Below, piece after piece: positions 42,807 through 64,000 of a stretch of DNA of 64,000 nt. The notes beneath the pieces are model-generated. The model saw only the letters and a list, made by a program, of their open reading frames with translations, was not told where the DNA came from and searched no databases. The stretch's first letter is position 1; every line of letters starts with the position of its first letter. Source of the stretch: a virus; IMG/VR virus record IMGVR_UViG_3300035232_000453; one strand, written 5' to 3'. Position numbers and translations under genes: made by a program.

Positions 42807-42809
42807 ATT

Positions 42810-45406: not shown

Positions 45407-45432
45407 ATACATATATAATAAAGGAGTATTCT

Positions 45433-46676: not shown

Positions 46677-47524
46677 TTGAAAAACAAGAGCAGGGTTATG
46701 TAATAATTGCAATGCAAGAGTTTGAATATATTCAAGCAACTGCACTTGCATATAGTATTAAAATACATAACAAAGATGCTAGTGTTACATTAGTTACTAA
46801 CTACATAGACCGTGTTCCTGCACACTACGAAGAAGCATTTGATTATTTGGTAGACATGCCATTTCCTTGTAATGAGGTTACTAGAATTAACGACTGGCAG
46901 TTGTACTGGGCAACACCATATATACATAACATTGTAATAGACTGTGCAAGCCTTGTTAAAGAAAATCACGATAGCATATGGGAATATTTAAAAGATCAGC
47001 ATGACATATACTTTTTCAATCAGTCTTATGATTTTAAAGGTGATGTATTAAAAAACAAACAAGTTAAGACTATAGAAGCAGAGTACAAACTTAATGCAGT
47101 TTATTCGCATATGTTTTACTTTAAGTTTGATACAGATTTAGCACTTGCATTTTTTAAATTAGCAGATGTGTTTATGCAAAATTGGAGACAAGTAATGCCA
47201 AAGTTTTTCAATCAATCTCATTGCCCAGAATATTATAACAGTGACATAATGTATAGTCTGCTAAACACAATAGTATTGTACGAGCATCCTCCAATACATA
47301 ATATTATTAATACAATTAATATGCCAGTAACGTTAACTGATGGAGTGATTGGTCAGTGGGATAAATGGTCAGAAAGATTAAACGTTTGGAGTAGCAAAGG
47401 AGCAAAAGTAAAAATTCAAAACTTTGCAATGGGAACTAACCTATACTATGGAGAACACGAGTTTATAACAGAAGAGATATTTAATGAACACAGAGACACT
47501 TACAGAGCCACAAGTAAACATTAA
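46673..47524 (+). CDS. Glycosyltransferase-like paralog with a degenerate DxD
   Basis: GYVIIA...Y...A.ALAYSIK, NDWQLYWATPY..NIVIDCAS; colinear with the previous gene. Confidence 0.55.
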   Translation: MIEKQEQGYVIIAMQEFEYIQATALAYSIKIHNKDASVTLVTNYIDRVPAHYEEAFDYLVDMPFPCNEVTRINDWQLYWATPYIHNIVIDCASLVKENHDSIWEYLKDQHDIYFFNQSYDFKGDVLKNKQVKTIEAEYKLNAVYSHMFYFKFDTDLALAFFKLADVFMQNWRQVMPKFFNQSHCPEYYNSDIMYSLLNTIVLYEHPPIHNIINTINMPVTLTDGVIGQWDKWSERLNVWSSKGAKVKIQNFAMGTNLYYGEHEFITEEIFNEHRDTYRATSKH

Positions 47525-48452
47525 AAGAAAGTACTTTATAGTATTTAACAATGATAATGGAAAAATACTAAGAATTAATAGTACTAAGGTTACTAACATT
47601 GCTAACAATACAACTCAGGCTGAATCAACTGACCCAATATGCAAAAAATTAATCAATGGTACTAGTAGCTTAAAAAAGTATGGCATGATATGGGATTTAA
47701 TAAATCACAAATGGGAACTTAGTCACCGTGGGAATGTATTAATAATTGAATCAGATGATAATAAATTAGTACCGTTTGCAAAAGATGTTGCTCCCTCTTC
47801 TGTTGATTTGTATGTGAATATATTTTATAATTCAAATCAAATACTTGTAACTGCAAATATGCCTTCAATTAGAAAAAATAAAAATTTAGCAACAATATCA
47901 GAAATATCATTAAACGAAACTAATGCATTAGATATACATATTACAAGAAAGAATGATCCAGACTATCTAGTACATACACTTAAACTTGATCCAAAAGAAT
48001 TGTTTACACACGGACAACAAATTATAACACTTGACAAGAATATAGATAAAGAACTAGACTGGAACAACATTAGTCTGTATTCAAAACACGTATTTAATAA
48101 TTACGGATGGTCGTTAACTGAACTCAAAATAGAAAACCAACGCAACGAACATTTGTTACAAACTTCTGCAAAAACAAACGAACCAAGTCACATAAATATT
48201 AACGTAGTGGATAATAGATTAATAGTTAGTAATAATTTATCTATAGCCGATAAACATTTACTATCTGGTATTAAATTATTTAAATTTATTGTCTGTAATG
48301 AGACTCCGGACGTATTTGTAGGTGCAATTCAAATAGAACGATCTCAATTTGAAAATAAAACGTTTGAGATAGAAATAAACTTTGATTGGCCAGATACTCC
48401 ACTGTTAGTACACAAGTACAATAACATAGAAATAAATTTAGGAGAACAATAA
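47484..48452 (+). CDS. Hypothetical protein
   Basis: 322-aa ORF in the operon; ITRKNDPDYL. Confidence 0.65.
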   Translation: MNTETLTEPQVNIKRKYFIVFNNDNGKILRINSTKVTNIANNTTQAESTDPICKKLINGTSSLKKYGMIWDLINHKWELSHRGNVLIIESDDNKLVPFAKDVAPSSVDLYVNIFYNSNQILVTANMPSIRKNKNLATISEISLNETNALDIHITRKNDPDYLVHTLKLDPKELFTHGQQIITLDKNIDKELDWNNISLYSKHVFNNYGWSLTELKIENQRNEHLLQTSAKTNEPSHININVVDNRLIVSNNLSIADKHLLSGIKLFKFIVCNETPDVFVGAIQIERSQFENKTFEIEINFDWPDTPLLVHKYNNIEINLGEQ

Positions 48453-48453
48453 G

Positions 48454-49200
48454 ATGAATAAATTAAATCCCCTTGTATGGGAAAATAGACACACAACAAG
48501 ATTATTTTCAGACACAGGTCCAATACCAGATGAAGATGTCGAATATTTAGCAACAGTAATAAATCACGTTCCTACTCAATGTAGTATTAAATCTCATTTT
48601 TGGATGTATTTAGGCCAAGGCGATGAAGACATGAAGATGCGTACATGGCTAGCTGATAATATATATTACATGACTAATAAGGAAGAACACGGTGATGACA
48701 AAGAACACATGCTTGCAGTTGTACAAGCACCAGCAGTACTTGTATGTGTTAGAACTTCAACACCTTGGGCTAATCCAGAAGAAGGAAAATCAGCAGAAGA
48801 TCAAAATCATTTAGCAGATAGAAGTGAAGGCTTTGTTGCCGGAGCAATACTTTCTACATTATTAAATATGGGATACAGCGTTGCAACATTTGGATGTACA
48901 CATGGAATGCATGCAGAAGGAAATGGTCGAGAAAAATGTGAAACATTTACAAAAATGATCAAAGAAAGATTTGGAACTGAACTAGAAAATATGATTAACA
49001 CATATCCAGGAAAGCAAGGCAATTGGGATGATATTAGTTTTTTCCCAGGTCTTACTAATAGTTTTGGCCCAGAGGCAATAGATAGCCTAGCGCCAACAGA
49101 AGGTGAACTGGAAACATGGGTTAGTAAAGCAGGCAAAGAATATAAATTTATAAACGGAACAAAATTACGTACACCAGTTGATTCAACTGTTGGATTTTAA
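48454..49200 (+). CDS. Nitroreductase-family flavoprotein
   Basis: N-terminal NRHTTRLF...IP, downstream HVPTQCS, QAPAVL, GYSVATFGC. Confidence 0.6.
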   Translation: MNKLNPLVWENRHTTRLFSDTGPIPDEDVEYLATVINHVPTQCSIKSHFWMYLGQGDEDMKMRTWLADNIYYMTNKEEHGDDKEHMLAVVQAPAVLVCVRTSTPWANPEEGKSAEDQNHLADRSEGFVAGAILSTLLNMGYSVATFGCTHGMHAEGNGREKCETFTKMIKERFGTELENMINTYPGKQGNWDDISFFPGLTNSFGPEAIDSLAPTEGELETWVSKAGKEYKFINGTKLRTPVDSTVGF

Positions 49201-49209
49201 GGAGACACT

Positions 49210-50196
49210 ATGAGTAGTATGGAAAGTATTAATGAATTTGATATAGTGTTCATTAGCTATGATGAACCAAATGCAGATGAAAACTATAACGATTTAATTA
49301 ATAAAGCACCGTGGGCAAAGAGAAGCCACGGTGTGTTTGGCAGTGATGCAGCACATAAGGCAGCAGCCGACCTAGCAGAAACAGATAGATTTATTACTAT
49401 TGATGCAGACAACATTGTCAAGGATGATTTCTTTGGTGTTGAAGTAGACATGAGTAAAATAAAAAACACAGATGTTATTAGTTGGGCTGGAAAAAATACA
49501 GTGAACGGATTAGTATACGGAAACGGAGGCATTAAGTGTTGGCCAAAAGAAGTAGTATATGGAATGCAAACACATGAGAATGCACCAGCGGGCGACAAGC
49601 GAGCCCAAGTAGACTTCTGTTGGAATATCAACTATGTGCAAATGAATAACATATATTGCGATGTAATGAATAATGCGAGTCCACTACAAGCCTGGCGTGC
49701 AGGTTTCCGTGAAGGAGTTAAGATGGGATTAGTTGACGGAGACGTTATCGATCCATTACAACTAAAAGAAAAAGTACACGATAAGAACTACAAGCGACTG
49801 CTTACTTGGATGAGTGTTGGTGACGACAGTGAGAATGGACTGTGGGCAATATACGGTGCAAGACTTGGGTGCCACATGACAAACATTGGTAGAGAAGATT
49901 GGGACTGGAGAAATGTTCGAGACTTTGATTGGCTTACAAAATATTATAAAGAAAATGTATTACCTAACTTTGAGGCTGACAGTGATCAGTTATGTTCACG
50001 TACAGGTATGCGTTGGAATTACGACACACTACAAAACGAAAGTAACAGACTTGGTTACGATTTAAGATCTAAATTAGATTTAGAAATTGCAGACTTAGGA
50101 AAAGAAGGATCTAGATTTTTTAAGAAAGTATATATTAATCCAAGCCGCATGGGAGCTCAAATTAGAGAAGACCAGGTTGAGGATACATTAGAATAA
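49210..50196 (+). CDS. Glycosyltransferase-like protein (GT2/GT-A)
   Basis: FISYDEPNA, AHKAAA, FITIDADN (DxD), NGLVYGNGG, AWRAGFREGVK. Confidence 0.7.
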   Translation: MSSMESINEFDIVFISYDEPNADENYNDLINKAPWAKRSHGVFGSDAAHKAAADLAETDRFITIDADNIVKDDFFGVEVDMSKIKNTDVISWAGKNTVNGLVYGNGGIKCWPKEVVYGMQTHENAPAGDKRAQVDFCWNINYVQMNNIYCDVMNNASPLQAWRAGFREGVKMGLVDGDVIDPLQLKEKVHDKNYKRLLTWMSVGDDSENGLWAIYGARLGCHMTNIGREDWDWRNVRDFDWLTKYYKENVLPNFEADSDQLCSRTGMRWNYDTLQNESNRLGYDLRSKLDLEIADLGKEGSRFFKKVYINPSRMGAQIREDQVEDTLE

Positions 50197-50199: not shown

Positions 50200-51204
50200 A
50201 TGGCATTAGGTGAACAAGGCTTCTATAATATACTTGACCATCATCACAAAGAAGCAAGTGATTGGGTTGTAGTAAATTGGAACTTGGGAAATATGTGCAA
50301 CTACAGTTGTTCGTATTGTCCTAGCATACTCAACGACGGCAGCTTTGGTTGGAATGATTTTACAGTAGTTCAAGGATTCATTGACGCTACTGCTAAACAC
50401 TATGCACCACGTAAAGTTTACTTTGAGTTCACTGGTGGCGAAGTTACACTATGGAAAGACTTTATTAAAGCTGTACAATACATTAAAGATATTGGACATG
50501 ACGTAGGATTTATCAGCAACGGTAGTAGAACATTACGCTGGTGGGAAAAGAATAAAGATAACTTTGATCATGTGTGTTTAAGTTTTCATCCTGAGCATGC
50601 AGATGCTGAGCACTTCTTTGAAGTAGTAAAGATAATGGCAGGCTACTGTCGTACACACGTAAATGTAATGGGTCACACTGATCCAGAATTATTCAACAAA
50701 GGTATTGCATTAAGTGAGAAGCTATGTATGGAAGTAGAAAACATCAGCATGGCATTCCAGCCTTTGGTAATAGACTTTGGTGAAGTACGTTTCCCATACA
50801 CAGATGAACAACAAAAGATATTTGATGATCAATGGAAGTTGTATGGTAGCAAAATAAAACACACAAAAGAATTTAAGTTATACAGAGGCAGCATGGATAT
50901 GCACGACACTGTTAACGCATTATCACAAAACAGTTCCGCACATAGATTTATTGCAGACAACAATAACAACTGGAAAGGTTGGGATTGCTGGGCAGGCATC
51001 GAACAGTTCATTGTGGACTTTGACGGTACAGTATGGAGAGGTTGGTGCAGGGTAGGAGGAACATTTGGTAATATACACGAACCAGATAAAATTAAATTTC
51101 CTACCAAGCCAGTAGCATGTAATAAGAGTTACTGTCATTGTAACTTTGATATTATGTGTAAAAAAGTATTGCCAGAACATAGATATGAGGTTATTGAAGA
51201 ATAA
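50200..51204 (+). CDS. Radical SAM enzyme with a C-terminal SPASM/twitch-like domain
   Basis: CNYSCSYC, TGGEVT, SNG, SFH; C-terminal CWAG...DG...C...C.K..C.C. Confidence 0.9.
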   Translation: MALGEQGFYNILDHHHKEASDWVVVNWNLGNMCNYSCSYCPSILNDGSFGWNDFTVVQGFIDATAKHYAPRKVYFEFTGGEVTLWKDFIKAVQYIKDIGHDVGFISNGSRTLRWWEKNKDNFDHVCLSFHPEHADAEHFFEVVKIMAGYCRTHVNVMGHTDPELFNKGIALSEKLCMEVENISMAFQPLVIDFGEVRFPYTDEQQKIFDDQWKLYGSKIKHTKEFKLYRGSMDMHDTVNALSQNSSAHRFIADNNNNWKGWDCWAGIEQFIVDFDGTVWRGWCRVGGTFGNIHEPDKIKFPTKPVACNKSYCHCNFDIMCKKVLPEHRYEVIEE

Positions 51205-52571
51205 TGAATGAAAATATACCATTACATAAAAAGGGAACATTTTGTGTTAAACCTTTTTTACAAAGTGCTATTACCAGCAACGGTATGTACCGAGTTTGTT
51301 GTGAGTGTGTGTTTGGCAAAAAAACTGGACCAGAGTATAACTTTGGAAAACTTATTAGGCCAAACGGCGAAACATATAATGCTAATAACAGTACAATACA
51401 AGAGACTAGGAATGCTCCTTTACTAAAAGAGATTCGAGCAAGTATGTTAAAAGGTGAGCAACATCCCGAATGTAGACAATGCTGGGAAACTGAAAAGCTA
51501 GGACTAGATAGTCTAAGAACATATATGAATAAAGAGTATGTTGGCGACATAGAAATGTGTAAAGAAAATACACTCGATGATGGTACTATTGATATTGCAC
51601 AAGTACCTTTAAAATATTTTGATATAAGACTAGGAAACAAATGTAATCAAAAATGCAGAATGTGTGGACCGGGCGATAGTAGTTTATGGCTAGATGACTG
51701 GGTTAAAATGGGTAATGCTAAAATAGATTTCTATGACGACAAGTACGACATTACCAAAGACGGAGAAAAATATTCTAGTATGATTGGTGACTGGAATAAA
51801 GAACCATTTGTAGCACAACTAAAAGACAATATGCATAACATTGATCGCATATACATGACAGGTGGCGAGCCTACAGTTATTAAAGAGTATTGGAATATTT
51901 TACAATATGCTATAGACAATGATTATGCAAAAAATATTAATTTAGAATACAACAGTAACATGTTTGTTATTCCACGCAATGCATGGGATATATGGAGCAA
52001 GTTCAAACGTGTCAGAATGACAATGAGTATTGATGGGTTAGGCGATGTACAAGATTATATTAGATTTCCAAGCAAGTGGCCAATCATTGAGCGTAACATT
52101 AATAAATTTTATGAACTTTCAAAAAAGTATACGAACATCTCGGCTACAATTGCACCAACTATTACAATATACAATGTAATGCAAATACCAGATATGGTAA
52201 AGTGGTACACTAACAGGTTTAGTACATTTGACTCAGTAATGGCTTTACATATATGTCATGGGCCTAGATTCTTAACAGTTCAAAATTATCCTAAAGCACA
52301 CAAGCAAAAAATTGTAGACAAGTACAATGAACTATTTGATTGGTGTAATAAAAATTTAGAAATTGGATTAGCACAACATATTATAAAAAAATATCAAGGA
52401 GTAATTGATTTTGCACTAGCAGATGATATTGAAACAGAAGTAACAGATGGTAAAGAGTGGACTAACAAAGATAGCTTCCTACAACATACACAAAAACTAG
52501 ACAGTATTAGAAATCAAACGTTAGAAGCTAACATACCTGATTTATACGAGGCAATAAAAGATTATGAGTAA
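51204..52571 (+). CDS. Radical SAM enzyme with an N-terminal twitch-like Cys domain
   Basis: FCVKPF...CC...CRQCW; CNQKCRMC; TGGEP; SIDG. Confidence 0.9.
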   Translation: MNENIPLHKKGTFCVKPFLQSAITSNGMYRVCCECVFGKKTGPEYNFGKLIRPNGETYNANNSTIQETRNAPLLKEIRASMLKGEQHPECRQCWETEKLGLDSLRTYMNKEYVGDIEMCKENTLDDGTIDIAQVPLKYFDIRLGNKCNQKCRMCGPGDSSLWLDDWVKMGNAKIDFYDDKYDITKDGEKYSSMIGDWNKEPFVAQLKDNMHNIDRIYMTGGEPTVIKEYWNILQYAIDNDYAKNINLEYNSNMFVIPRNAWDIWSKFKRVRMTMSIDGLGDVQDYIRFPSKWPIIERNINKFYELSKKYTNISATIAPTITIYNVMQIPDMVKWYTNRFSTFDSVMALHICHGPRFLTVQNYPKAHKQKIVDKYNELFDWCNKNLEIGLAQHIIKKYQGVIDFALADDIETEVTDGKEWTNKDSFLQHTQKLDSIRNQTLEANIPDLYEAIKDYE

Positions 52572-54024
52572 CCATAAGCGTTCTTTGTGTACACACCGTT
52601 GGGGATATAGTGTAATTGATTTTGGAAAGAATCAAGCAAGAACTTGTTGCAGAACAAAACTAAAAGATCAAGATGTCAGTCAATTATCAAATCTTAAAGA
52701 AGATTACTTTCTTAATGATTCATATCAGCTTGAGCGTAGATTAGAAATGCTCAAAGGACAAAGACATTCTAGTTGCGAAACATGTTGGTTACTAGAAGAC
52801 CAAGGCGTACAGAGTCCAAGAATATATAATGCTCCTACTGGATGGGATATACAAGATGATAAAGTTATAAACAAACTTACATTAGAGGAAACACTAATTA
52901 AAGATATTACTATAGAACATCCAATACTTCGAAGCACAAAGCCATACATGTTAGAAGTAAATCTTAGTAATCATTGTGACATGAGTTGTTTATATTGTAG
53001 TCCATACTTTAGTAGTACTTGGGCAAATGCAAATACTGATCTATGGGCAATGGGTATTAATCCTGATTGGGACTTTACTAAGGACGAACACAATAAATTA
53101 AAAGTACAAGTAAATGATCAAAATTTAGAAAACTTTAACAGTGAGTTTTGGAAATGGTTGAATACTAATTTATCACAATCAGATGATCCTAATCATCATC
53201 TTCGGTTGGGTATATTAGGTGGCGAGCCAATAAATAATCCTAGGCTACCTCAGTTCCTTGATAACTTGTGTAATATAATGGAAAGCATTCCCGTTGACAA
53301 ACGACCACACAGTGGATATTGGGATCATGCTAATAAAAAATCATTTCACCCAGGTAAGCCACTGCTTTGGTTTGTTACAAATGGAAATACTAGAGAAGCT
53401 TATTTTAAAAAGTTTATAGATAGATTGCCAAGGCTATGTGAACTTTTTACTGTAGAAATTAGTGTAAGTATTGAGTCTTATAAAGAACGTGCAGAATATA
53501 TTAGAATGAATCTAGTGTGGGATAGATTTGAAAAGAACATTAGAGAATATCTAAAATTAGATCTTCCTGACTTGCAAATAGGATTTCAAACTAGTATAAA
53601 CAATTTATGCATAAGCAGTATGCCTGATTTCTTACGCTGGTGTGTTGAGCTATATGATACATATGGTAAACCTTTATTTTTAAAACCCAATGTTGTTAAT
53701 GACCCAGACCATTATAGAGTTGAAATGCTGCCAGCTAGTTATATGAATTATATCAATGAGAGTATAAACATTCTCAAGACTAGAACCCCACAGGATATAA
53801 ATGATCCATATGCAACATGGCCTGCATATATTAATTTCTTGTCAACTATTAAGTGTACGCAAACAGGAACAACATTACAATATGAAAAATTATGTAAGTT
53901 TATAAACAATCTTGATTTGAGAAAAAATACTGATTGCAGAAATATTTTTCCAGAGATGTCGGAGTTTTGGAATATAGTACAAGAAACATCAAACGCTAAG
54001 TGGGAGGAGATACATAACATATGA
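52564..54024 (+). CDS. Radical SAM enzyme with an N-terminal twitch-like Cys domain
   Basis: LC..RW...CC...CETCW; CDMSCLYC; LGGEP; TNG. Confidence 0.9.
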   Translation: MSNHKRSLCTHRWGYSVIDFGKNQARTCCRTKLKDQDVSQLSNLKEDYFLNDSYQLERRLEMLKGQRHSSCETCWLLEDQGVQSPRIYNAPTGWDIQDDKVINKLTLEETLIKDITIEHPILRSTKPYMLEVNLSNHCDMSCLYCSPYFSSTWANANTDLWAMGINPDWDFTKDEHNKLKVQVNDQNLENFNSEFWKWLNTNLSQSDDPNHHLRLGILGGEPINNPRLPQFLDNLCNIMESIPVDKRPHSGYWDHANKKSFHPGKPLLWFVTNGNTREAYFKKFIDRLPRLCELFTVEISVSIESYKERAEYIRMNLVWDRFEKNIREYLKLDLPDLQIGFQTSINNLCISSMPDFLRWCVELYDTYGKPLFLKPNVVNDPDHYRVEMLPASYMNYINESINILKTRTPQDINDPYATWPAYINFLSTIKCTQTGTTLQYEKLCKFINNLDLRKNTDCRNIFPEMSEFWNIVQETSNAKWEEIHNI

Positions 54025-55169
54025 TAGATAATGATTTTACAGTTGGTCGCCCAGTTCGTGTTTATGATGGACAAAGACACTTTAGTGATTTAAGTACAGA
54101 AGAAGTTGTTGCAAAGCGTATTAATAATTTTTCAGGATGGAAGTGTGGAGCCGGCGTTGAAAATATTAATATCGACTTTGATGGATATGTACAGTTAGCT
54201 AGTTGTGGTGCTGGAACTAAGATTAATAAAGTCTTTACAGGAACACTAGGCAATGTGTATGACGGTTATCTTGTTATACCCGACCAATGGATAGATTGTA
54301 ATATCTCAGCTTGCAGTTGTGGATCTGATATATTCATTCCCAAATACAATCCAAAAATAGGAAACAAAGAATATCTTCTTAAATTAAAGCAACAGCCAGC
54401 AGATCAAAAATATAATCTTGGACCGAATGCGTTGGGAAATAATAATAATGCAGCAGTAGAAAGAACACACCTAGGTGGGTACAAGCAAGTGTTCTGGGAA
54501 CTAGGCAGACGTTGTAACTTTAACTGTAGTTATTGTCCAAGTGAAGTACATAACAATACTGAAAAAAAGAAAAATTGGGATCAGTTAAATGATGCATATC
54601 AACTAATTAAACAAAAATTTCTTTTGGATGGCAAGGCAAATTTTGTTGTAAGCGGAGGGGAACCAACTGTACACAAACACTATATAGAGTTTGCAAAAAT
54701 GATTTATGATGATGGACACAAACTAAGTACGCACAGTAATGGTAGCAGATTGCCTGCATATTATAGAGAGCTAGTTCGCTACAGTGACTTAAACATTAGT
54801 ATACATTTTGAATACATAGATAGATACGAAGAAAAGATATCTAATATAATAGATGGCATATGTAAAGAAAAACAAGAACGAGATGCTCAAGGATTGCATA
54901 GAGGTCACATGGAAGTTTACTTTATGGTAATGCCTGGCAGGATGGACGAAGCAATACAACTAGAAAAAGATATTATAAATGCATGCCCGGAATTTTTAAA
55001 TTATTGTACACATACATTTATGCCGTTGCGAACAAACGAATTAATACAACAAGCAAAGCAAGGTATTAAAAAAGATAGGCAAGGTAATACATTGCTAATA
55101 GATTATACAACTGACGAGATGATACAGATGGGAAGTAGAACAGAACGGTGCAAAAATGAGTACCAATAA
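54021..55169 (+). CDS. Radical SAM enzyme with an N-terminal SPASM-like domain
   Basis: N-terminal GWKCGAG...DFDG...C...C...CSC; CNFNCSYC; SGGEP; SNGSR. Confidence 0.9.
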   Translation: MIDNDFTVGRPVRVYDGQRHFSDLSTEEVVAKRINNFSGWKCGAGVENINIDFDGYVQLASCGAGTKINKVFTGTLGNVYDGYLVIPDQWIDCNISACSCGSDIFIPKYNPKIGNKEYLLKLKQQPADQKYNLGPNALGNNNNAAVERTHLGGYKQVFWELGRRCNFNCSYCPSEVHNNTEKKKNWDQLNDAYQLIKQKFLLDGKANFVVSGGEPTVHKHYIEFAKMIYDDGHKLSTHSNGSRLPAYYRELVRYSDLNISIHFEYIDRYEEKISNIIDGICKEKQERDAQGLHRGHMEVYFMVMPGRMDEAIQLEKDIINACPEFLNYCTHTFMPLRTNELIQQAKQGIKKDRQGNTLLIDYTTDEMIQMGSRTERCKNEYQ

Positions 55170-56376
55170 CTTTTGTAGTTTACCATGGACACAAATAGAA
55201 ATCCAAACTGATGGAACATATAGAGCGTGTTGTAGGCAAGTGGGTAAACAATATCACAATGACGACCAAGATGTGCTTAAATTTCCTGAAGCTGGATTTA
55301 AAGAAGCATGGGACAGTGATAGTTTACACGAACTAAGACGCAAATTCTTAAACAACGAGAAGCCAGCCGAATGTGCTAATTGTTGGAAAGAAGAAGCAGC
55401 TGGTATAGAAAGTCTACGATTAAATATGAGTAGAGAGCTTACCAACGAAGAACTTAACGATCCACACCCAACACTATTAGATTTAAAATTAGGAAGTCAT
55501 TGTAATATCAAATGTAGAATATGTAATCCTTATATAAGTAGTCAATGGACTACTGAAGCACATAAAGAAACCTCTAAGCAGTGGAACTTCTTTGATAAAA
55601 GTCTTGTTAAACATAAACGCAACGACAGTGTAATTACAGGAAACAAAGAAACACTAGATAAATGGTTACCAAATATAAAACAGATATGTGTGTATGGTGG
55701 AGAAACTTTTATGATTCCACCATTCTATGAACTACTAGATACATGCATAGAAAGTGGACACGCTGAACATATAGAATTAATATTTAATACCAATGGTACT
55801 TATTTTAAACAAGACGTAGCTGAAAAGTTAAATCATTTTAAAATGGTATTATTTCATTGGAGCATAGATGACATACACGAACGTTTTAATTATCAAAGAC
55901 ATCCAGCTAAATTTGATAATGTAATTGAAAATGTAAAACTTTGGAACAAGGCAATTAACAGAGATGTAATTAAAAACAAAGTATGGACTACAGTTAGTTT
56001 ATTAAATGTTGCTTATCTACCCGAGCTAGTAGAGTATTGGGATAAGAATTTAAGACAGTATATTGAATTAATTGATTTTGGTTATTGTCATGAGCCGCTT
56101 TATTATAATGTAAAGGCGTTGCCTAAACATACTAAGGATTGGATAACTGATAAACTATTGAATTCTAAGAGTATAGACATAGGCGATTGGGAGTATGCAA
56201 CGGATAAGAGTTGTAAAACTAATATAGATCATTTTGAAAAAATAACTGCGTTTATGAATAGTGAAGACTTGCATGATGAACATTGGGAAGACTTTGAAGA
56301 AGAATGCTCACGTGCTGACAAGTATCGCAAAGAAGACTTTGTAAGTACCTTTCCTGAACTGTGGTTAGAAATATAG
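55156..56376 (+). CDS. Radical SAM enzyme with an N-terminal twitch-like Cys domain
   Basis: FCSLPW...CC...CANCW; CNIKCRIC; YGGE; TNGT. Confidence 0.9.
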   Translation: MSTNNFCSLPWTQIEIQTDGTYRACCRQVGKQYHNDDQDVLKFPEAGFKEAWDSDSLHELRRKFLNNEKPAECANCWKEEAAGIESLRLNMSRELTNEELNDPHPTLLDLKLGSHCNIKCRICNPYISSQWTTEAHKETSKQWNFFDKSLVKHKRNDSVITGNKETLDKWLPNIKQICVYGGETFMIPPFYELLDTCIESGHAEHIELIFNTNGTYFKQDVAEKLNHFKMVLFHWSIDDIHERFNYQRHPAKFDNVIENVKLWNKAINRDVIKNKVWTTVSLLNVAYLPELVEYWDKNLRQYIELIDFGYCHEPLYYNVKALPKHTKDWITDKLLNSKSIDIGDWEYATDKSCKTNIDHFEKITAFMNSEDLHDEHWEDFEEECSRADKYRKEDFVSTFPELWLEI

Positions 56377-57879
56377 ATGGTTAATATTTTATTATGCAGT
56401 GTTCCATTAATGGACGTTGAAATGCCTGCTCCTGCTCCTTTTCATTTGAAAGGTCAGTTAACAGATAGTAACGTCATAGCAGAAGCAGTTGACACTAATG
56501 TAATCTTTTTTAATAGAGTAAAGGATCAATGGAACGATGTCATTGCTGCACTACTTAGTTCTCCAGACTATACTGTTGAAGCAGATGAACCAATTTTTGT
56601 TTTAATCAAAAGTGAATTAGAAAAAGTATTTCACGAACAGATAAAACTACACAACCCAACTTGGATAGGATTAAGTGTATTCACAAAAGTCAGTCGCTGG
56701 TGTACACAAATTGTATGTGAATATATAAAGAAACATTTTCCAGATGTAAAAATATTATTGGGTGGAGCCGGACTAGGATTAACATTGGGAGATTACACTG
56801 ATACGTTTGCTTCTGATCTTAAACAAAGAAATTTATGCGACGAATACATATTAGGTGAAGGAGAGATAAGTCTACAAAAGTTTTTTCAACATGTAAAATA
56901 TCCAGGCATAGCTAGCCAACCAGTACAGATAACAGACTTGAATGATGTGAAGTGGTCGGACTATAGTAGTGTTAACTGGAATCTTTATCCATTAAAGAGC
57001 AATGTTGGCCAAGGATCAACATTAGGTAGTATAGAAAATAAACATTATGTACTAACTGGAAGTAGAGGATGTGTTAGAAAATGCGATTTCTGTGATGTAT
57101 ATAAAATGTGGCCTAAGTATAGAAGTAGACGTGGTGAAGATATTGCAGAAGAAATGACACACCATTATAATCAAAGCAAAGTAAGACATTTTTATTTTAG
57201 TGATAGTTTGATCAATGGTAGTATGCGTGACTTTAGATCACTAAGTAAGACACTACTAGACAGTAAAGAGAATGGTACACTTGCAGAAGATATATATTGG
57301 GGCGGACAATTTATTGCAAGAACTAACGAACAAATGAACTTGGAAGATCTCAAACAGGCAAAACGTTCAGGCTTTGTGCATTGCAGTATTGGATTAGAGC
57401 ATGCTAGTGAACGCATAAGAGATTTCATGAACAAGAAAACTCCAGACGCTGCAGTATGGGATACTGTTGAAAACCTAGCAAAAGCTAATATTGTTACTGC
57501 ATATAACTTTATCATTGGACATCCTAGAGAAACTATAGAAGATTTAGAGTGTATTGTTAAGTGGCTACATGATTTTAAATGGGCAAGTGACGCAGGTCAT
57601 ATTGAAAAGATAAATTTACAAACAGGAATATATTTTTTAGAAGGTACTGATTTTTATACAAAGCGAGATAATCTAGTAGACTTTCAATATGGCGGCACAG
57701 AATTTTGGGTAAGTAAGTATGTACCCGATCTTAACTTTGCAGAAATATATAGAAGAAGAATGTATATAAGCGAAGTAGCAGAAAGTTTAGGTTATAGATT
57801 ACACGACGAAGATAGTTTAAAAAATTATATGAATCGAAAATTAAAAAGGTTTAAGGAACATGAAGAAAAGAATAGCTAA
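56377..57879 (+). CDS. Cobalamin-binding radical SAM enzyme (class B methyltransferase-like)
   Basis: N-terminal B12-binding-like WIGLSVF...ILLGG...GEGE; GSRGCVRKCDFC; FSDSLING; IGLE; IIGHPRET. Confidence 0.85.
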   Translation: MVNILLCSVPLMDVEMPAPAPFHLKGQLTDSNVIAEAVDTNVIFFNRVKDQWNDVIAALLSSPDYTVEADEPIFVLIKSELEKVFHEQIKLHNPTWIGLSVFTKVSRWCTQIVCEYIKKHFPDVKILLGGAGLGLTLGDYTDTFASDLKQRNLCDEYILGEGEISLQKFFQHVKYPGIASQPVQITDLNDVKWSDYSSVNWNLYPLKSNVGQGSTLGSIENKHYVLTGSRGCVRKCDFCDVYKMWPKYRSRRGEDIAEEMTHHYNQSKVRHFYFSDSLINGSMRDFRSLSKTLLDSKENGTLAEDIYWGGQFIARTNEQMNLEDLKQAKRSGFVHCSIGLEHASERIRDFMNKKTPDAAVWDTVENLAKANIVTAYNFIIGHPRETIEDLECIVKWLHDFKWASDAGHIEKINLQTGIYFLEGTDFYTKRDNLVDFQYGGTEFWVSKYVPDLNFAEIYRRRMYISEVAESLGYRLHDEDSLKNYMNRKLKRFKEHEEKNS

Positions 57880-57952
57880 AATAAAAGTGAAAATAAAATC
57901 CTTAATACGAAAGTTCCGAAATAGAAAAAAGCAAAGGCATATATATGAGTAA
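57860..57952 (+). CDS. 30-aa highly basic peptide MKKRIAKIKVKIKSLIRKFRNRKKQRHIYE (absent from the ORF track)
   Basis: AAGGA upstream; overlaps both neighbours; C-terminus similar to 62979-63086. Confidence 0.65.
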   Translation: MKKRIAKIKVKIKSLIRKFRNRKKQRHIYE

Positions 57953-58637
57953 TCTATTTGCAGTTGGTTGCAGTCATACTGAAGGATTTGAAATTACTGT
58001 CCCAAACACATTAAGTCCAATGGATTTAGAATTGCGATGGAGTAAGCGTCTTGCTGACCAATTAGGTATGCTAGAAATCAATAGCAGTAGAGGTGGAGCA
58101 GATTTAGAGATGGTTTCTGACTTTGCACTTGAATATATTCCTAAATTGACACCAGACGATATTTGTGTTATACTATGGCCAGAGCCTAGTAGACTAGTTG
58201 CTTATTTGCCTAACTATGACAATGAGTTTGGATTTTATGTAAACAGAATAAACAACTATACTAAAAAAGGATATATACCTGGCGAGGTAGAACTGTTTGG
58301 AGACACATACTTTGAACTTTTTAACAACAACTATAATATGGAAAAACGTTTTTATATGAATTATCTTTTAGTAGACAATGTTTACAGAAACAAAGGCATC
58401 AAGTTATTCCATAGCAGATACAGTACTGGCGCATATAAGCAACGTAATGTTTATAATTTTGGATATGCACAATCTCACTATCAACAAAATAAAAATGTAA
58501 TACCACATACATTTGTAGATTACTGTTTAGAAAAAGGATACGATCCACAAATAGATGGAAGAGATTATCACTTTACAGCAGATGCTCATAATGACTGGGC
58601 TAACTATGTTTATGAGGTTATTAAATGCAAGTCTTGA
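57945..58637 (+). CDS. SGNH/GDSL-like hydrolase or acyltransferase
   Basis: AVGCSHTEG (GxS block I), N...GG (block II), DGRDYHF...H. Confidence 0.65.
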   Translation: MSNLFAVGCSHTEGFEITVPNTLSPMDLELRWSKRLADQLGMLEINSSRGGADLEMVSDFALEYIPKLTPDDICVILWPEPSRLVAYLPNYDNEFGFYVNRINNYTKKGYIPGEVELFGDTYFELFNNNYNMEKRFYMNYLLVDNVYRNKGIKLFHSRYSTGAYKQRNVYNFGYAQSHYQQNKNVIPHTFVDYCLEKGYDPQIDGRDYHFTADAHNDWANYVYEVIKCKS

Positions 58638-59179
58638 TACCAATAACAGATACAAGCGATTTTTCAAAGATATTGCAAAACTCTTATATTTTAAAACATA
58701 ACTTTGCTTTTGTAATTGACAACGATATTAAACTTGCATACCGAGACTGGCAGTATCAAAACTATACTGCAATCAAAGAAAAGTTTAATGAGCCGTTGTA
58801 CGTATACGACTATGGTAACTTTAAAGACATAGGCGAATGTCATAGCTACCGAAAAGCATTTTATTACTTTAAAACATTTGGTAAATTTGTTGAGTCGAGT
58901 CCTGTAGTAATTACAAACATAGACTACGTTAAATATGCAGACACACTTGCAGAAGTAGTAGAAGAAGATCCAAACACACACGACGGTATATTACTAGACA
59001 ATGATTCAGCAATTGCATTTTATTGGTACATGGCAGGGAGATTTTGTCATGCAGTAGACGATAAAGATAAAAAGAATATAATACATTATAATCATTTAGA
59101 ACTATTAGAAACACTTGCTCGAGGCGAGCATTATGAATTATGGTCAAAAGACTATTCTGTAATTGAGTTAGAAAGATAA
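58625..59179 (+). CDS. Hypothetical protein
   Basis: 184-aa ORF coupled within the operon. Confidence 0.6.
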   Translation: MQVLIPITDTSDFSKILQNSYILKHNFAFVIDNDIKLAYRDWQYQNYTAIKEKFNEPLYVYDYGNFKDIGECHSYRKAFYYFKTFGKFVESSPVVITNIDYVKYADTLAEVVEEDPNTHDGILLDNDSAIAFYWYMAGRFCHAVDDKDKKNIIHYNHLELLETLARGEHYELWSKDYSVIELER

Positions 59180-59191
59180 AGGAAGTATAAC

Positions 59192-60232
59192 ATGGCAACA
59201 CACTTAAAAATAAAATGGCCTAATCACTACATTGTAGTAGAACTATGTAAATCTCCAGTTGTGGAGAAATGGAAACTGTGTATACAAGATGTTATTAAAA
59301 ATAATGCACCTCCGATGATTACACATGGTGCACCATTTTATCATGCGTATGGTGGACGAAACGAAGAACTGCAAGCAAAAGCTGTTAAAGAAATAAATTT
59401 AGCAATAGAAGAAGTTAATAAATTAGTTTCAGTTCCATTTCCTCATCGTGCATACGAAGACATGCCTTGGGAACAAACAAATCTAATACACAGATGTTTT
59501 ACAACAGCTCAAGTTAGTCATAGAACTTGGCAACTTAATCTAACAAGTAAACTTAAAGATCAATGCAAAGATGTTCCTGATGGCACCTTGCGTGATTGGT
59601 TACAAAGCATTGCTCCATTTGATTTTGATACTACAATGTGTTGGCAACCGTTTAGCAGTGCAAATAGTAGAATAAACAAATGGACACACATATATGAAGA
59701 CTTACGCATCAGTAAAAGAGCTGTAAATTTTAAAGACTTTGCAATAGAAAAATATGGAAAAGATATTCAATGTATTAATTTAGAACTAGATGTTTATCGC
59801 CCCGATGGACAAAAATGGTATACCTTCCAGGAGAGATGTAGCATAGAAGAGATCAAGTCTAGTTTTCCAGATAACAAAGAAGACTGTAACGTAACACTTA
59901 TGAAAAGTATTACTGGCAAAGATTACTTTCAATGCTATCAAGAGTATGACGATCCGACTGAATGGGATATTCAAAACGTAGGTGTTATTAAGGGTGGGTT
60001 AGCATACTATCCTCTTAACGAACTAAACAACGTACTACGTGGCAGTGACTTTGAAGCATGGTATAAAAGCTATGGACTGGCTCCTGAACAAGTCGAGCCA
60101 GTACCTTTAGGAAAAATAGTTGAAGACACAGTTGACTACAGTAAATTTGTAGTACACGAAACAAATCTTAATTCAGATGGTACACAGGCGATATGTGATG
60201 AATATAGAAATATGAAATACGAACTTATATGA
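59192..60232 (+). CDS. Hypothetical protein
   Basis: 346 aa, AAGGAAG RBS; NLIHRCFT, GKDYFQCY..YDDP. Confidence 0.7.
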   Translation: MATHLKIKWPNHYIVVELCKSPVVEKWKLCIQDVIKNNAPPMITHGAPFYHAYGGRNEELQAKAVKEINLAIEEVNKLVSVPFPHRAYEDMPWEQTNLIHRCFTTAQVSHRTWQLNLTSKLKDQCKDVPDGTLRDWLQSIAPFDFDTTMCWQPFSSANSRINKWTHIYEDLRISKRAVNFKDFAIEKYGKDIQCINLELDVYRPDGQKWYTFQERCSIEEIKSSFPDNKEDCNVTLMKSITGKDYFQCYQEYDDPTEWDIQNVGVIKGGLAYYPLNELNNVLRGSDFEAWYKSYGLAPEQVEPVPLGKIVEDTVDYSKFVVHETNLNSDGTQAICDEYRNMKYELI

Positions 60233-61512
60233 AAAAATGGCAACACCACCGAGATAATAATTCTGCATTTTGCATCTTACCATTCAGTCAGAGTCACATC
60301 AACACTGATGGTAGTTGCCATGTATGTTGTGTAGGAGATTGGGATCATGCATTAAGTAGAAATGTTTCCGACGAAGGAATACTTAATCTATGGCGTGGTG
60401 AAAAATATAAAGAAATAAGACAGAAAATGTTAGCAGGCGAAAGACCATCAGTGTGCCAGGGTTGTTATAATTTAGATGATGCTGCAGGTGGAAGCGACCG
60501 AAGTGTACTAACACATAATTTCTCAGAGCCGCATGACGATTGGGACATTGAAGTTGATGCAGGAAACACAGATGGTATTCCAAGTTGGTTAGACTGGAGA
60601 CCGGGTAATTTTTGTAACTTAAAATGTAGGATGTGTTTTCCAAGTGCTAGTAGTGGACTAATGGATGAACTTACAGATAACAAAGAACTAAACCCGTTCT
60701 ATGGGCATGATGGATATGAAATTGGTAACTGGCTAGATGATCCTGATAGGTTTGAAGAATTTAAAAAAATTATACCCTATGTAAGCAAATTAAAAATTGC
60801 AGGCGGCGAACCTATGTTTATGCAAGGTGTTATAAACATGTTTAGATATTGTGTAGATAATGATATTGCAAAGAATATTAGTTTAGATATCACTACAAAC
60901 GGCACAAGGAAGCAAGGCAAAGTTTTAAAAATGCTTACTGAATTTAAAACACTTGATGTTAACTTTAGTATTGATGGTATAGCTAACAGTCATGATTACA
61001 TTAGATACCCTAGCAAGATAGTAGACATTCTAAAAAACTATAAAGAGTATCAGGAAATAGCAAAGACAACTATACTAATGACAGTACAGATGTACAACAT
61101 ATTTGAAATACCTAGTGTTATAGAATGGTGGTATGAGAACAACAAGCATCATGATTATGAAAAGCACAAGATTAATTTTAATTTTGTAATTGTGCCAAAA
61201 GACTTAGACGTTAGATTATTACCAGAACAATATAAAAAACAAGTAGTGGAAGAAATTAATCAAGTGTTAGATAGAATACAACTGTCAGATAGTATGTTAC
61301 GCAGAACAAGAATAGCAGACATCATTCATAAATTAACTGTAGAAAGCACAGGTCCAGAGATGGCTGCTAAAAACAATCTTACTGTTGATCAAAAGCAAAA
61401 ACAATTTGTTGATCGTACAGTGAAGTTTGATCGAATTAGAAACCAAACAATAAAAAGTCTAGACCCTAGACTGGTAGAGATATTTGAGACATGGAGACAA
61501 CAACATGGCTAA
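60229..61512 (+). CDS. Radical SAM enzyme with an N-terminal twitch-like Cys domain
   Basis: FCILPF...CC...CQGCY; CNLKCRMC; AGGEP; TTNGT; SIDG. Confidence 0.9.
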   Translation: MKKWQHHRDNNSAFCILPFSQSHINTDGSCHVCCVGDWDHALSRNVSDEGILNLWRGEKYKEIRQKMLAGERPSVCQGCYNLDDAAGGSDRSVLTHNFSEPHDDWDIEVDAGNTDGIPSWLDWRPGNFCNLKCRMCFPSASSGLMDELTDNKELNPFYGHDGYEIGNWLDDPDRFEEFKKIIPYVSKLKIAGGEPMFMQGVINMFRYCVDNDIAKNISLDITTNGTRKQGKVLKMLTEFKTLDVNFSIDGIANSHDYIRYPSKIVDILKNYKEYQEIAKTTILMTVQMYNIFEIPSVIEWWYENNKHHDYEKHKINFNFVIVPKDLDVRLLPEQYKKQVVEEINQVLDRIQLSDSMLRRTRIADIIHKLTVESTGPEMAAKNNLTVDQKQKQFVDRTVKFDRIRNQTIKSLDPRLVEIFETWRQQHG

Positions 61513-62254
61513 AATATTTTATGTAAATGGATGTAGCCATACAGCAGGTGCTGAAATGGAATATGTTAAAAGCAAGGGTACAGAATATGACAAACAACAT
61601 AGCTATGCAAAACACATACACGATAATCTGTTTAGTGATTATGAATACATAAACCATGCATACAGTGGCAACAGTAACGAAAGTATGGCGTTGGATACAA
61701 TTAATAGTTTATCTCAAATGCTAGAACACACACCTGCAAGCGATATGTTTGTAATGTTAGGTCTTACTGATCCTAATAGATATCATTTTGATGTGCCACC
61801 TAATTGGCAAATTTATCGTAATCGAATTAGATTTTTTACAGGGCTAGATATAAATCCCGATTATAGATATAACTGTGCAACTGATTTTCCTTATGCAAAA
61901 GAATTATGGACTGGTATAAATGCAATGGCATCAAACTTTGAACAAGAATATAGAGTGTTCGCTAAAGACTATTCGTTGCTTGTTAACTTTTTAGAGTCTA
62001 ATAATTTACAGTATAGAATGATTCAAACACTTCATTGTTACGATCCTAAGTTTGTACCAGAACAATACAATAAAATTTACGAACATTATTTTAATAATTC
62101 TCATGTAGTTAACAAGAAAGGTTGGAATAATACTATGTTTGAGTGGTTAAAAGATAAAGGATACAGTAACTCTATAGACGGACGTACTGGACATTACAGA
62201 GAAGATGCTCACATAGCCTGGGCAGACTACTTGTTGAGTAGGATAACATTATGA
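61505..62254 (+). CDS. SGNH/GDSL-like hydrolase or acyltransferase
   Basis: Start moved to ATG 61505 (GGAG upstream); YVNGCSHTAG, NHAYSGNSN, DGRTGHY. Confidence 0.7.
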   Translation: MAKIFYVNGCSHTAGAEMEYVKSKGTEYDKQHSYAKHIHDNLFSDYEYINHAYSGNSNESMALDTINSLSQMLEHTPASDMFVMLGLTDPNRYHFDVPPNWQIYRNRIRFFTGLDINPDYRYNCATDFPYAKELWTGINAMASNFEQEYRVFAKDYSLLVNFLESNNLQYRMIQTLHCYDPKFVPEQYNKIYEHYFNNSHVVNKKGWNNTMFEWLKDKGYSNSIDGRTGHYREDAHIAWADYLLSRITL

Positions 62255-62991
62255 CTATATTGTATGTAAATGGATGTAGTCAAACTGCAGGCGCTGAAAT
62301 AGTATCACCGGGCATTGTTGATACACAAACTAATCCACACAATGATAATAGAAAACTAAGTTGGGCTGGACAAATACACAGCAATTTATTTAAAAATTGG
62401 GAATATGTTAATGCCGCATACTCGGGTAGTAACAATGAAAGTATTGCATTAAATACTATTAATGATATAGAACAATTAACTCCAAGCCAACGTTATGATG
62501 TAAGAGTATTAATAGGATGGACATATCCTGGTAGATATCAATTTGAAGTACCTAAGGACTTTGGTTGTTATAAACAGAAAGCCAAGTTCTTTGCAGGATA
62601 TGGGTTAAGTAACGACCTAGAAGAAATACCATATGCTGATGAACTGTGGAATGGGATTAATGGCATACATACTCCAATGGATGATTATAAAACATTTATA
62701 CGAGATTACACGTTGTTAAGCAGTTATCTTTACACAAACAATATAAGATATTGTATGTTACATTTTAATTGGCATCCTAAGACTGTAAGTACTGATAACA
62801 GATACACACACATGTATAACCGTTATGTCCATGATGACAATTTTATTTACAAGTACAATGATAGTGTAACTTGGTTACACAATAACAATTACATTGACAC
62901 CGAAGACGGACGCACTGGCCATTACACACAACAAGCACACGCTGAGTATAGTAAATTTATTAGCAAGGAAGTATTAGCATGTCTCCAATAA
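62251..62991 (+). CDS. SGNH/GDSL-like hydrolase or acyltransferase (tandem paralog)
   Basis: YVNGCSQTAG, NAAYSGSNN, DGRTGHY. Confidence 0.7.
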   Translation: MTILYVNGCSQTAGAEIVSPGIVDTQTNPHNDNRKLSWAGQIHSNLFKNWEYVNAAYSGSNNESIALNTINDIEQLTPSQRYDVRVLIGWTYPGRYQFEVPKDFGCYKQKAKFFAGYGLSNDLEEIPYADELWNGINGIHTPMDDYKTFIRDYTLLSSYLYTNNIRYCMLHFNWHPKTVSTDNRYTHMYNRYVHDDNFIYKYNDSVTWLHNNNYIDTEDGRTGHYTQQAHAEYSKFISKEVLACLQ

Positions 62992-63086
62992 AATGGATAA
63001 AAACAAAATACAAGCACTGGCGTATTAAACGACAAATGAATAAGAAAATCAAACGTGCAAAAAAGAACAAGCACATATACGATTAA
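62979..63086 (+). CDS. 35-aa highly basic peptide MSPIKWIKTKYKHWRIKRQMNKKIKRAKKNKHIYD (absent from the ORF track)
   Basis: AAGGAAG upstream; overlaps the previous stop; C-terminus similar to 57860-57952. Confidence 0.65.
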   Translation: MSPIKWIKTKYKHWRIKRQMNKKIKRAKKNKHIYD

Positions 63087-63120: not shown

Positions 63121-63714
63121 ATGAAAACAATAATTTTTGATTTTGACGGTACACTTGCAGACTGCAAAGAACTACATCAAATTGCATTTCGTAATGCAGT
63201 ACAAGAGCTTTGTCCTGGTGCAGAATTTAGCAACGAAGACGTGGAAGGTAGGCCAACACGTGAGAAGATACGTATACTACACACAATGGGTTACGAGTTT
63301 AACGGTGATAAGTTAAATGATATCAAGCAAGCATATACACAAGAACACTTAGCAGAGTATGTAAAGTTTAACAAAGAACTACTAGATGAGATGTTGAGAT
63401 TAAAGCAAAGATATAAGCTATGCATAGCCAGTAATGCTACAGAATTATTTGTACTTAGAAGTTTAAGTATTATGCAAATGTATAAAGAATCAGGACAACA
63501 AGTGTTTGATAAAATTAATACTGCAACAGACTTTCCAGCTAAACCAGATACTACTACATTTATAGATTGTATGAGGTGGACCGGTAACACACCGGACAAC
63601 ACTATTATATTTGAGGATAGTGTAGTTGGAATACAATGTGCATTAAACACAGGTGCACAGGTTGTTAGAGTAATAGATGTAGATCACACTATAGAGGAAA
63701 TGAAGAAACTATGA
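63121..63714 (+). CDS. HAD-superfamily phosphatase (beta-PGM-like)
   Basis: IFDFDGTLAD, ASN, KP, FEDS..G. Confidence 0.9.
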   Translation: MKTIIFDFDGTLADCKELHQIAFRNAVQELCPGAEFSNEDVEGRPTREKIRILHTMGYEFNGDKLNDIKQAYTQEHLAEYVKFNKELLDEMLRLKQRYKLCIASNATELFVLRSLSIMQMYKESGQQVFDKINTATDFPAKPDTTTFIDCMRWTGNTPDNTIIFEDSVVGIQCALNTGAQVVRVIDVDHTIEEMKKL

Positions 63715-64000
63715 AACTAATAATGCCAATGGCGGGCTTAGGTAGTCGCTTTCCAGATCAAGTTAAACCCCTAATACCAGTTGGTGATGTTCCTATGTTT
63801 GTACACAGTGAACGTTGCATAGACTTGGAGTTTGATGAACGTATATTCATTGTACACAAGCAACACGATATTAAAAGTCGTGTGTTAGAATGGTATCCCG
63901 ATGCACACGTAATTGAATTGGACTACTTGACAGAAGGCACTGCTTGTAGTATAATGACTGCAAGGGAACACTTTGAAGATGGAAGTGATATCTTTGTTAG
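63711..64000 (+). CDS. Sugar-phosphate nucleotidyltransferase-like protein, runs off the window
   Basis: MKLIMPMAGLGSRF...KPLIPV...TEGTACS; ATGA overlap with the HAD stop. Confidence 0.8.
   Translation, partial: MKLIMPMAGLGSRFPDQVKPLIPVGDVPMFVHSERCIDLEFDERIFIVHKQHDIKSRVLEWYPDAHVIELDYLTEGTACSIMTAREHFEDGSDIFV

Follow-up and report, generated by a model that had tools for sequence, protein, structure and literature searches.

Two basic micropeptides abutting SGNH-fold genes in a radical SAM-rich cluster of a marine phage, putative partner subunits of tailoring enzymes

The virus record IMGVR_UViG_3300035232_000453, of which a stretch of 64,000 nucleotides (hereafter referred to as the window) was analyzed, carries two very short genes for strongly basic peptides within a biosynthetic gene cluster rich in radical S-adenosylmethionine (SAM) enzymes. 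Micropeptide 1 (57860..57952, + strand) starts with ATG, comprises 30 amino acids with a net charge of +13 and ends with RHIYE. Micropeptide 2 (62979..63086, + strand) is likewise initiated at an ATG codon, comprises 35 amino acids with a net charge of +13 and ends with KHIYD. Each of them contains 14 Lys or Arg residues, and both C-termini follow the pattern [KR]-H-I-Y-[DE]-stop. Peptide 1 shares 20 nt with the 3' end of a B12-binding radical SAM gene, and the ATG at 57945 of the following gene, encoding a protein of 230 amino acids, falls inside the Tyr-Glu-stop codons of peptide 1. The start codon of peptide 2 lies 13 nt ahead of the stop of the gene at 62251-62991, with an AAGGAAG box approximately 7 nt upstream of it. 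As judged from these overlaps, the translation signals of the peptide genes are coupled to a neighboring gene. An initial reading of the window, made from the DNA sequence only (the sequence-only reading), had pointed out both open reading frames (ORFs) with their translations, their content of basic residues, their common ending, their overlaps with neighbors and Shine-Dalgarno-like signals; these observations were reproduced, the Shine-Dalgarno-like sequence being the box ahead of peptide 2.

In total, 442 small ORFs of 25–60 amino acids are present on both strands of the whole window. Contents of Lys plus Arg of at least 40% were found for only 4 of these, among which only peptides 1 and 2 are located in gaps between genes of the cluster, and no further ORF of this set features an ending of the HIY[DE] type. 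Orthologs of peptide 2 were detected in every related contig examined, those of peptide 1 in all relatives examined except G003. Pairwise codon counts for peptide 2 resulted in proportions of nonsynonymous differences (pN) of 0.08–0.17 in 5 of 6 pairs, at proportions of synonymous differences (pS) of 0.5–1.0. For peptide 1, comparison of the window with the Tara contig L063 yielded a pN of 0.05 and a pS of 0.89, and the two pairs involving G002, which contains the most divergent ortholog, showed a pN of 0.35. Synonymous sites were near saturation across the pairwise comparisons (pS 0.5–1.0), and the alignments feature runs of third-position changes preserving Lys, Ile, His and Ala. Invariant among the HIY peptides are an Ile-[KR]-x-Lys-[IY]-Lys block on the N-terminal side and the Lys...His-Ile-Tyr tail. 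The codon-level check suggested in the sequence-only reading thus revealed coding selection. Based on the rarity of Lys/Arg-rich small ORFs, the orthologs in related contigs and selection at the codon level, peptides 1 and 2 do not represent chance ORFs; they are genuine, separately initiated micropeptide genes under strong purifying selection, and their earlier designation as real genes missed by annotation is upheld. No transmembrane helix was found in either peptide, the maximum hydropathy over 19 residues being -0.24 for peptide 1 and -1.37 for peptide 2.

Both peptide genes abut members of a family of three paralogous genes of approximately 250 codons (starting at 57945, 61484 and 62251), in which a GCSHTxGxE block, an Arg residue and a C-terminal His are invariant. 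Paralog A (57945..58637, + strand, 230 amino acids) follows peptide 1 and aligns with the other paralogs, the evidence for its fold originating from paralog C. Paralog C (62251..62991, + strand, 246 amino acids) overlaps the start of peptide 2 with its 3' end. Paralog B (61484..62254, + strand) comprises 256 amino acids when read from the TTG codon given in the ORF list; an ATG located 21 nt downstream represents the likelier start according to the paralog alignment. Its ortholog in the relative L001 (53% identity) is the gene that peptide 2 follows there. Pfam searches yielded no match for these paralogs. An AlphaFold2 model of paralog C reached a pLDDT of 90.7, and Foldseek comparisons of this model retrieved TesA, GDSL esterases, CE2 acetyl-xylan esterases and the peptidoglycan O-acetyltransferase PatB, with E-values of 1e-5 to 1e-3. 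Furthermore, Ser10 and His224 are invariant in 35–36 sequences of the family. According to the model, the neighbors of approximately 250 amino acids are predicted to adopt the SGNH fold with a block I Ser and a catalytic His.

In order to determine what the peptides travel with, gene order was compared among four related marine phage lineages. Peptide 1 is located directly 5' of the gene for the 230-aa SGNH paralog in G002/L069, L063, L273, L296 and L302, and its upstream neighbor varies: the window has the B12 radical SAM gene at this place, L063 an inserted gene for an FkbM methyltransferase, and G002 a radical SAM gene of the twitch type. In G003, the B12 radical SAM gene has been kept, and both the 230-aa SGNH paralog and peptide 1 are gone; G002 carries peptide 1 without having a B12 radical SAM gene. 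Peptide 2 is located directly 3' of an SGNH paralog of 246–259 amino acids in L001, L005/G002, L063 and L243-L249, and is followed by variable neighbors, namely a HAD phosphatase gene in the window, a ribulose-phosphate epimerase gene in L063 and L001, and the end of the cluster in G002. The synteny across these relatives shows that peptide-SGNH pairs were gained and lost together, independently of the radical SAM genes. Peptide and SGNH enzyme are accordingly inherited as pairs.

Selecting loci by the SGNH gene only led to the same association. All of the 18 loci picked in this way that have an abutting small basic ORF encode a peptide ending with [FH]IY[DEK] (18/18); they include triads of SGNH gene, peptide gene and carbamoyltransferase gene as well as locus L276, whose peptide ends with DPHIYD. 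A metagenome scan with the SGNH family as its sole criterion added the L276 locus, further orthologs of peptides 1 and 2, each of them directly adjoining the SGNH gene, and five additional SGNH-peptide-carbamoyltransferase triads. Among distant SGNH loci in IMG/VR, L023 features an SGNH gene, then a peptide ending with DPFIYK, and then a carbamoyltransferase gene. A profile constructed from five HIY peptides matched only two of 1.84 billion proteins, both of them orthologs, and a pattern scan of IMG/VR for HIY peptides returned no contigs beyond the same three. As far as these searches extend, the HIY[DE] form seems to be restricted to one marine phage clade.

The search in all six frames for short basic ORFs ending with [HF]IY[DEK], proposed in the sequence-only reading, was productive and exposed a wider family. 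In L063 and G002, a third small basic ORF (L063:13778-13894 and L059:18764-18892), ending with DPYIYE, overlaps the 3' end of a gene for a NodU/CmcH-type carbamoyltransferase. Since the window stops before the equivalent region, its phage may carry a third micropeptide of its own. The 30-aa basic ORF at L276:2407-2499, located directly upstream of an SGNH-family gene, has a tail (DPHIYD) that, by its residues, is intermediate between the DPFIYK and KHIY[DE] forms. Among 80 IMG/VR phage loci selected by their carbamoyltransferase gene, 34 possess a basic ORF of 33–48 amino acids ending with DP[FY]IY, and 50 of the 80 were positive in a looser, frame-only search, for which [KR]HIY[DE] endings were admitted as well. 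The DP[FY]IY ORF typically overlaps both neighbors by 4 nt, and its downstream neighbor is either the carbamoyltransferase gene or a GDSL/DUF6071 gene preceding the latter. In bacterial and archaeal assemblies, the looser search identified soluble peptides at 27 of 80 carbamoyltransferase-selected loci, many of which belong to metagenome-assembled genomes (MAGs) and some of which are possibly phage-derived. A stricter ORF scan located them in isolate assemblies of Streptomyces, Sphaerisporangium, Glycomyces, Nonomuraea, Nocardia and Dactylosporangium, where the contigs concerned are genuinely chromosomal. These actinomycete and MAG peptides end with DPF[IL]YK and are encoded directly upstream of the carbamoyltransferase gene. 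Soluble peptides are hence common in uncultured phages and actinomycete clusters, and are mostly missed by gene callers.

More distant carbamoyltransferase genes, e.g., those of Prochlorococcus, are followed by genes for proteins of 47–70 amino acids featuring a hydrophobic segment and APF[IV]Y plus three residues at the end. These proteins belong to PF19451 (DUF5989), members from L219, L217, L211 and L238 scoring 38–87 bits. In Prochlorococcus, the gene order is carbamoyltransferase, SxtJ (PF19588), DUF5989 and GDSL-like protein; in Streptomyces, it is peptide, carbamoyltransferase and DUF6071. The orders observed in phages and bacteria identify micropeptide, carbamoyltransferase and SGNH protein as a recurrent module, and the window clade holds extra micropeptide copies joined to extra SGNH paralogs. 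The genes sxtJ and sxtK were described in a 2010 review (PMC2885083) as short ORFs adjacent to sxtI which have no known function and were not functionally characterized.

Database searches added little to this picture. None of the soluble peptides matched a family in Pfam or PHROGs, and the DPFIY-type soluble peptides also lacked a match to PF19451. In the ESM Atlas, peptide 2 had no match and a DPFIYK peptide retrieved only unnamed clusters of 501, 105 and 72 members. A tblastn search of GenBank phages with a DPFIYK peptide gave no match, and next to the carbamoyltransferase genes of HTVC008M and S-CAM8 no small ORF is annotated, as far as the annotation, consulted without a six-frame scan, extends. 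An overly specific DNA pattern search for the peptides returned zero matches, and a literature search on the peptide motifs yielded irrelevant matches only. As a separate observation, the usual upstream neighbor of the phage DPFIYK peptides is a conserved protein of approximately 350 amino acids without a Pfam family (L129:1872-2906, L118:1187-2248 and about 20 other loci), the usual order there being 350-aa gene, peptide, GDSL and carbamoyltransferase. An hhalign comparison of this protein with the 346-aa protein of the window was not significant. Five putative fusions (P0027-P0031, 89–169 amino acids) join a peptide to unrelated sequence and were judged to be gene-call run-ons. The DPFIYK peptide is C-terminal in four of them and N-terminal in P0029, the partner fragments include Pfam matches to UDG and CHASE2, four are single sequences, and each is encoded on one short contig. 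The 235-aa gene following the third peptide in L063 was considered as a further SGNH paralog and rejected by hhalign.

Regarding the remaining genes of the cluster, all seven radical SAM genes named in the sequence-only reading were confirmed. Six of them are consecutive on the + strand (50200..57879; Pfam PF04055, SPASM or B12-binding), at 50200-51204, 51204-52571, 52564-54024, 54021-55169, 55156-56376 and 56377-57879, the last one being of the B12-binding class. The seventh gene, of the N-terminal twitch type, is located at 60229..61512 (+ strand) and matches the NCBIfam model NF033640 (N-terminal twitch radical SAM) with 305 bits; this model also matches the genes at 51204, 52564 and 55156. 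In the four NF033640 paralogs, a twitch/SPASM-like Cys domain precedes the radical SAM core, and the genes at 50200 and 54021 appear to have core and Cys domain in opposite orders. Two conserved genes encoding 184 and 346 amino acids (58625..60232, + strand) have no Pfam or NCBIfam family and are present in all relatives; the AlphaFold2 model of the 346-aa protein was unusable (pLDDT 39.6). Downstream of peptide 2, a beta-phosphoglucomutase-like phosphatase of the haloacid dehalogenase (HAD) type (63121-63714, + strand) and the start of a MobA-like nucleotidyltransferase (63711-63998, + strand), which runs off the window, are encoded.

In the Tara relative, the cluster carries on for at least 8 kb (L063:8837-16738) with genes for a ribulose-phosphate epimerase, a nucleotidyltransferase/kinase-like fusion, an SIS isomerase and a kinase-like protein, and it also holds the carbamoyltransferase gene with the third micropeptide and more radical SAM genes. 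The gene content of this extension suggests a nucleotide-sugar pathway with heavy tailoring. Likewise, by its radical SAM, SGNH, HAD and nucleotidyltransferase genes, the cluster of the window is predicted to be a soluble sugar-phosphate/nucleotide-sugar tailoring system. In G002 (L059-L061), the radical SAM/SGNH block is located on the strand opposite to the homologs of window 42204-50196, the B12 radical SAM gene is absent, and insertions extend the ortholog of the 230-aa SGNH protein to 306 amino acids. This strand switch, the absence of the B12 gene and the insertions, together with the FkbM methyltransferase gene inserted before peptide 1 in L063, indicate that the block is modular.

The window, with a GC content of approximately 34%, encodes a portal protein, an SbcCD-like nuclease, baseplate wedge and hub proteins and a protein of 3565 amino acids; its source is a large T4-like or jumbo myovirus. 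With approximately 50% identity, the portal proteins of PA5oct, Atu_ph07 and Phosso come closest, and no close relative of the window was found among GenBank phages. Relatives originate from marine metagenomes: G001/L002 is near-identical to the window, G003/L001 shows protein identities of about 60–83%, G002/L059-L061 (also L069) of about 42–80%, and further relatives comprise the Tara contig L063 and others. The ORF for the 3565-aa protein (window 31462-42159) lies amid baseplate and tail genes and immediately precedes the biosynthetic block, and its counterparts in the relatives encode 2886–4628 amino acids with faint carbohydrate-binding matches.

Based on gene pairing and family context, the peptides are tentatively proposed to be small partner subunits of tailoring enzymes, namely divergent, SGNH-linked members of a micropeptide family accompanying carbamoyltransferases and SGNH proteins; this reading is favored, at a likelihood somewhat short of even. 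The family that best explains the data comprises soluble DPF[IL]Y[KE] peptides, found in phages and actinomycetes, together with the membrane-type DUF5989/SxtK proteins that occur in other bacteria. Travel of the peptides with SGNH rather than radical SAM genes argues for their membership in this family and against precursors of peptides that are ribosomally synthesized and modified post-translationally (RiPPs), and the third peptide, ending with DPYIYE and encoded beside a carbamoyltransferase gene, ties them to the DPF[IL]Y[KE] family and to DUF5989/SxtK. Moreover, the pairwise gain and loss of peptide and enzyme suggests that the enzyme encoded next to each peptide is its direct partner. 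Each peptide would be made in step with its abutting SGNH enzyme by means of the overlapping start and stop codons and may act as a small, non-catalytic partner of this enzyme. The conserved tail (an aromatic residue or His, then Ile, Tyr, one residue and the stop) might serve as a docking element or complete the active site, and the strongly basic body might bind an anionic partner such as the substrate, a membrane surface or nucleic acid. Small accessory subunits had been listed in the sequence-only reading as an alternative and have become the favored explanation, their interaction with the enzymes being inferred only. The clade possesses three paralogous micropeptides, each with a different tailoring gene (two SGNH paralogs and one carbamoyltransferase), and hence offers clean peptide-enzyme pairs for settling the role of a widespread and mostly unannotated micropeptide family.

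Several results weigh against this reading. Binding of peptide and enzyme is putative, and no fusion of a peptide to an SGNH protein or a carbamoyltransferase was found in a search for such fusions. Modeling of peptide-enzyme complexes, which had been recommended as a check, was performed for peptide 1 with the 230-aa SGNH paralog A; the score of 0.10 was below the mark and speaks neither for nor against binding. Outside the close clade, a peptide of this kind occurs at only 1 of 33 SGNH-family loci in IMG/VR. Neither window peptide matched PF19451 (threshold 27 bits) at E <= 10, and a six-frame search of G001-G003 with this model also gave no match for the peptides. A hidden Markov model (HMM) built from 28 DPFIY peptides scored the HIY peptides no better than their shuffled versions. 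Given this lack of separation, the link between the HIY and DPFIY forms rests on size and charge, the Ile-Tyr-x-stop end, the frequent M-x-W-[IL] start, gene context, co-residence and the L276 peptide. In DUF5989, a transmembrane helix precedes the PFIY motif, an arrangement not easily squared with docking in the cytoplasm. Finally, hydrophobic moments at 100 and 180 degrees were overall not above those of shuffled controls, so that amphipathicity as helix or strand lends nothing to a membrane- or polyanion-binding role of the basic body, which is a guess.

The sequence-only reading had preferred RiPP precursors for the neighboring radical SAM maturases. In a RiPP-like system of this kind, the peptides would be precursors or scaffolds whose C-terminal His/Phe-Ile-Tyr would be cross-linked or methylated by the twitch and B12 radical SAM enzymes and then tailored. 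Seven radical SAM genes in an operon-like block, a B12 enzyme weakly similar to RiPP C-methyltransferases, and a conserved C-terminal motif behind variable N-termini are in line with this idea, as is the presence of a radical SAM gene within 3 kb in about half of the phage loci with DPFIY-type peptides. Presence and absence of the peptides, however, track the SGNH paralogs and not any radical SAM gene, and among the loci with a family peptide, 27 of 50 from phages and 23 of 27 from genome assemblies lack a radical SAM gene within 3 kb. Searches of Pfam and NCBIfam detected no RiPP recognition element (RRE)/PqqD, peptidase or exporter/transporter, with the limit that the window ends inside the cluster; no protein encoded between 42204 and 64000 features a transmembrane-like segment, and the remaining cluster genes concern sugar-phosphate chemistry. 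The precursor proposal was therefore not sustained and is regarded as unlikely. Co-variation and context take away the neighborhood argument for it, and some modification of the peptides may still occur; a role of the peptides as radical SAM substrates is improbable. This case advises against taking short conserved ORFs for RiPP precursors as a matter of course when radical SAM genes abound in their surroundings. It is also rather unlikely that the peptides are acceptors or carriers; the abutting SGNH acyl-transferase/esterase or carbamoyltransferase would then use the Tyr hydroxyl or the C-terminus as its substrate, or either of these would carry a sugar-derived intermediate. Tyr is the one residue retained alike in HIY, PFIY, PYIY, PFLY and PFVY, and every peptide adjoins a group-transfer enzyme; yet a single carrier would suffice where each enzyme has its own peptide, and the Tyr of DUF5989 lies beyond a transmembrane helix. 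A related and equally doubtful proposal describes the micropeptides as covalent scaffolds whose Tyr or C-terminus carries or joins a sugar-derived product built by the radical SAM, SGNH and carbamoyltransferase enzymes. If true, the phage would encode a peptide-templated pathway, RiPP-like or of the carrier-peptide type, with the SxtK-type proteins as bacterial counterparts.

Two further explanations were considered. Start/stop overlaps on one or both sides at nearly all loci, together with Lys-rich and A-rich coding sequences, would fit cis-acting ORFs that control translation of the overlapping neighbor, the poly-Lys body and the fixed tail acting in the ribosome tunnel. Peptide 2, however, is located downstream of its constant neighbor and the gene following it varies, the same tail occurs in high-GC actinomycetes in which the basic residues are Arg, and the membrane-type relatives are clearly structural proteins, which renders this possibility quite unlikely. 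The net charge of +13 over 30–35 residues might also suggest free cationic peptides hitch-hiking in the cluster that would, for example, disrupt membranes at lysis, condense nucleic acids or interfere with the host. Such a role is very improbable considering that, in distant phages and bacteria alike, the peptides strictly and repeatedly adjoin SGNH or carbamoyltransferase genes, and that the amphipathic moment is not significant.

Comparison with known systems places the proposed partner subunits in context. MbtH-like proteins offer a functional analogy only: they are small, encoded in biosynthetic clusters, and bind and activate a partner enzyme without being catalytic themselves. They comprise about 70 amino acids, are globular and specific for adenylation domains of nonribosomal peptide synthetases, and are not related to the window peptides in sequence or fold. 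RiPP precursors of the three-residue cyclophane and RaS types resemble the window peptides in that they, too, are short ORFs embedded among many radical SAM genes and have an aromatic motif conserved at the C-terminus; the window peptides differ from them in showing no co-variation with a maturase, in the lack of a detected RRE, protease or exporter, and in their sugar-phosphate context.

Closer likenesses were found to the soluble DPF[IL]Y[KE] peptides (28–49 amino acids), which share size, strong positive charge and the Ile/Leu-Tyr-x-stop end with the window peptides and which, in many phages and in actinomycetes, are encoded between SGNH and carbamoyltransferase genes. Many members of both groups start with M-x-W-[IL], and genes of both groups overlap with those for SGNH proteins or carbamoyltransferases at their start and stop codons. 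Moreover, peptides of the DPF[IL]Y[KE] and HIY types co-reside in L063 and G002. The window peptides feature Lys/Arg-His where the soluble family has Asp-Pro-Phe, so that only Ile-Tyr-x-stop remains of that tail, and the similarity of the two groups in sequence is statistically inseparable from composition. Unlike the DPF[IL]Y[KE] peptides, they are paired with SGNH paralogs and have no adjacent carbamoyltransferase gene; none is located inside the window, and in L063 and G002 such a gene, accompanied by a peptide of its own, is found at a distance of a few kb or on the opposite strand. From DUF5989/SxtK, the window peptides differ in their tails ([KR]HIY[DE]-stop instead of APFIYxxF), in having no transmembrane helix, and in abutting SGNH genes, whereas DUF5989/SxtK adjoin the carbamoyltransferase or SxtJ. 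Nevertheless, both are very small, their N-terminal part is basic, an aliphatic-Tyr motif is conserved at their C-terminal end, and DUF5989/SxtK and the wider family of the window peptides are encoded in modules combining a carbamoyltransferase with a GDSL/SGNH protein. With their HIY[DE] ending and their pairing with SGNH genes, the window peptides add a new, SGNH-linked form to the SxtK-like and DPFIYK micropeptides.

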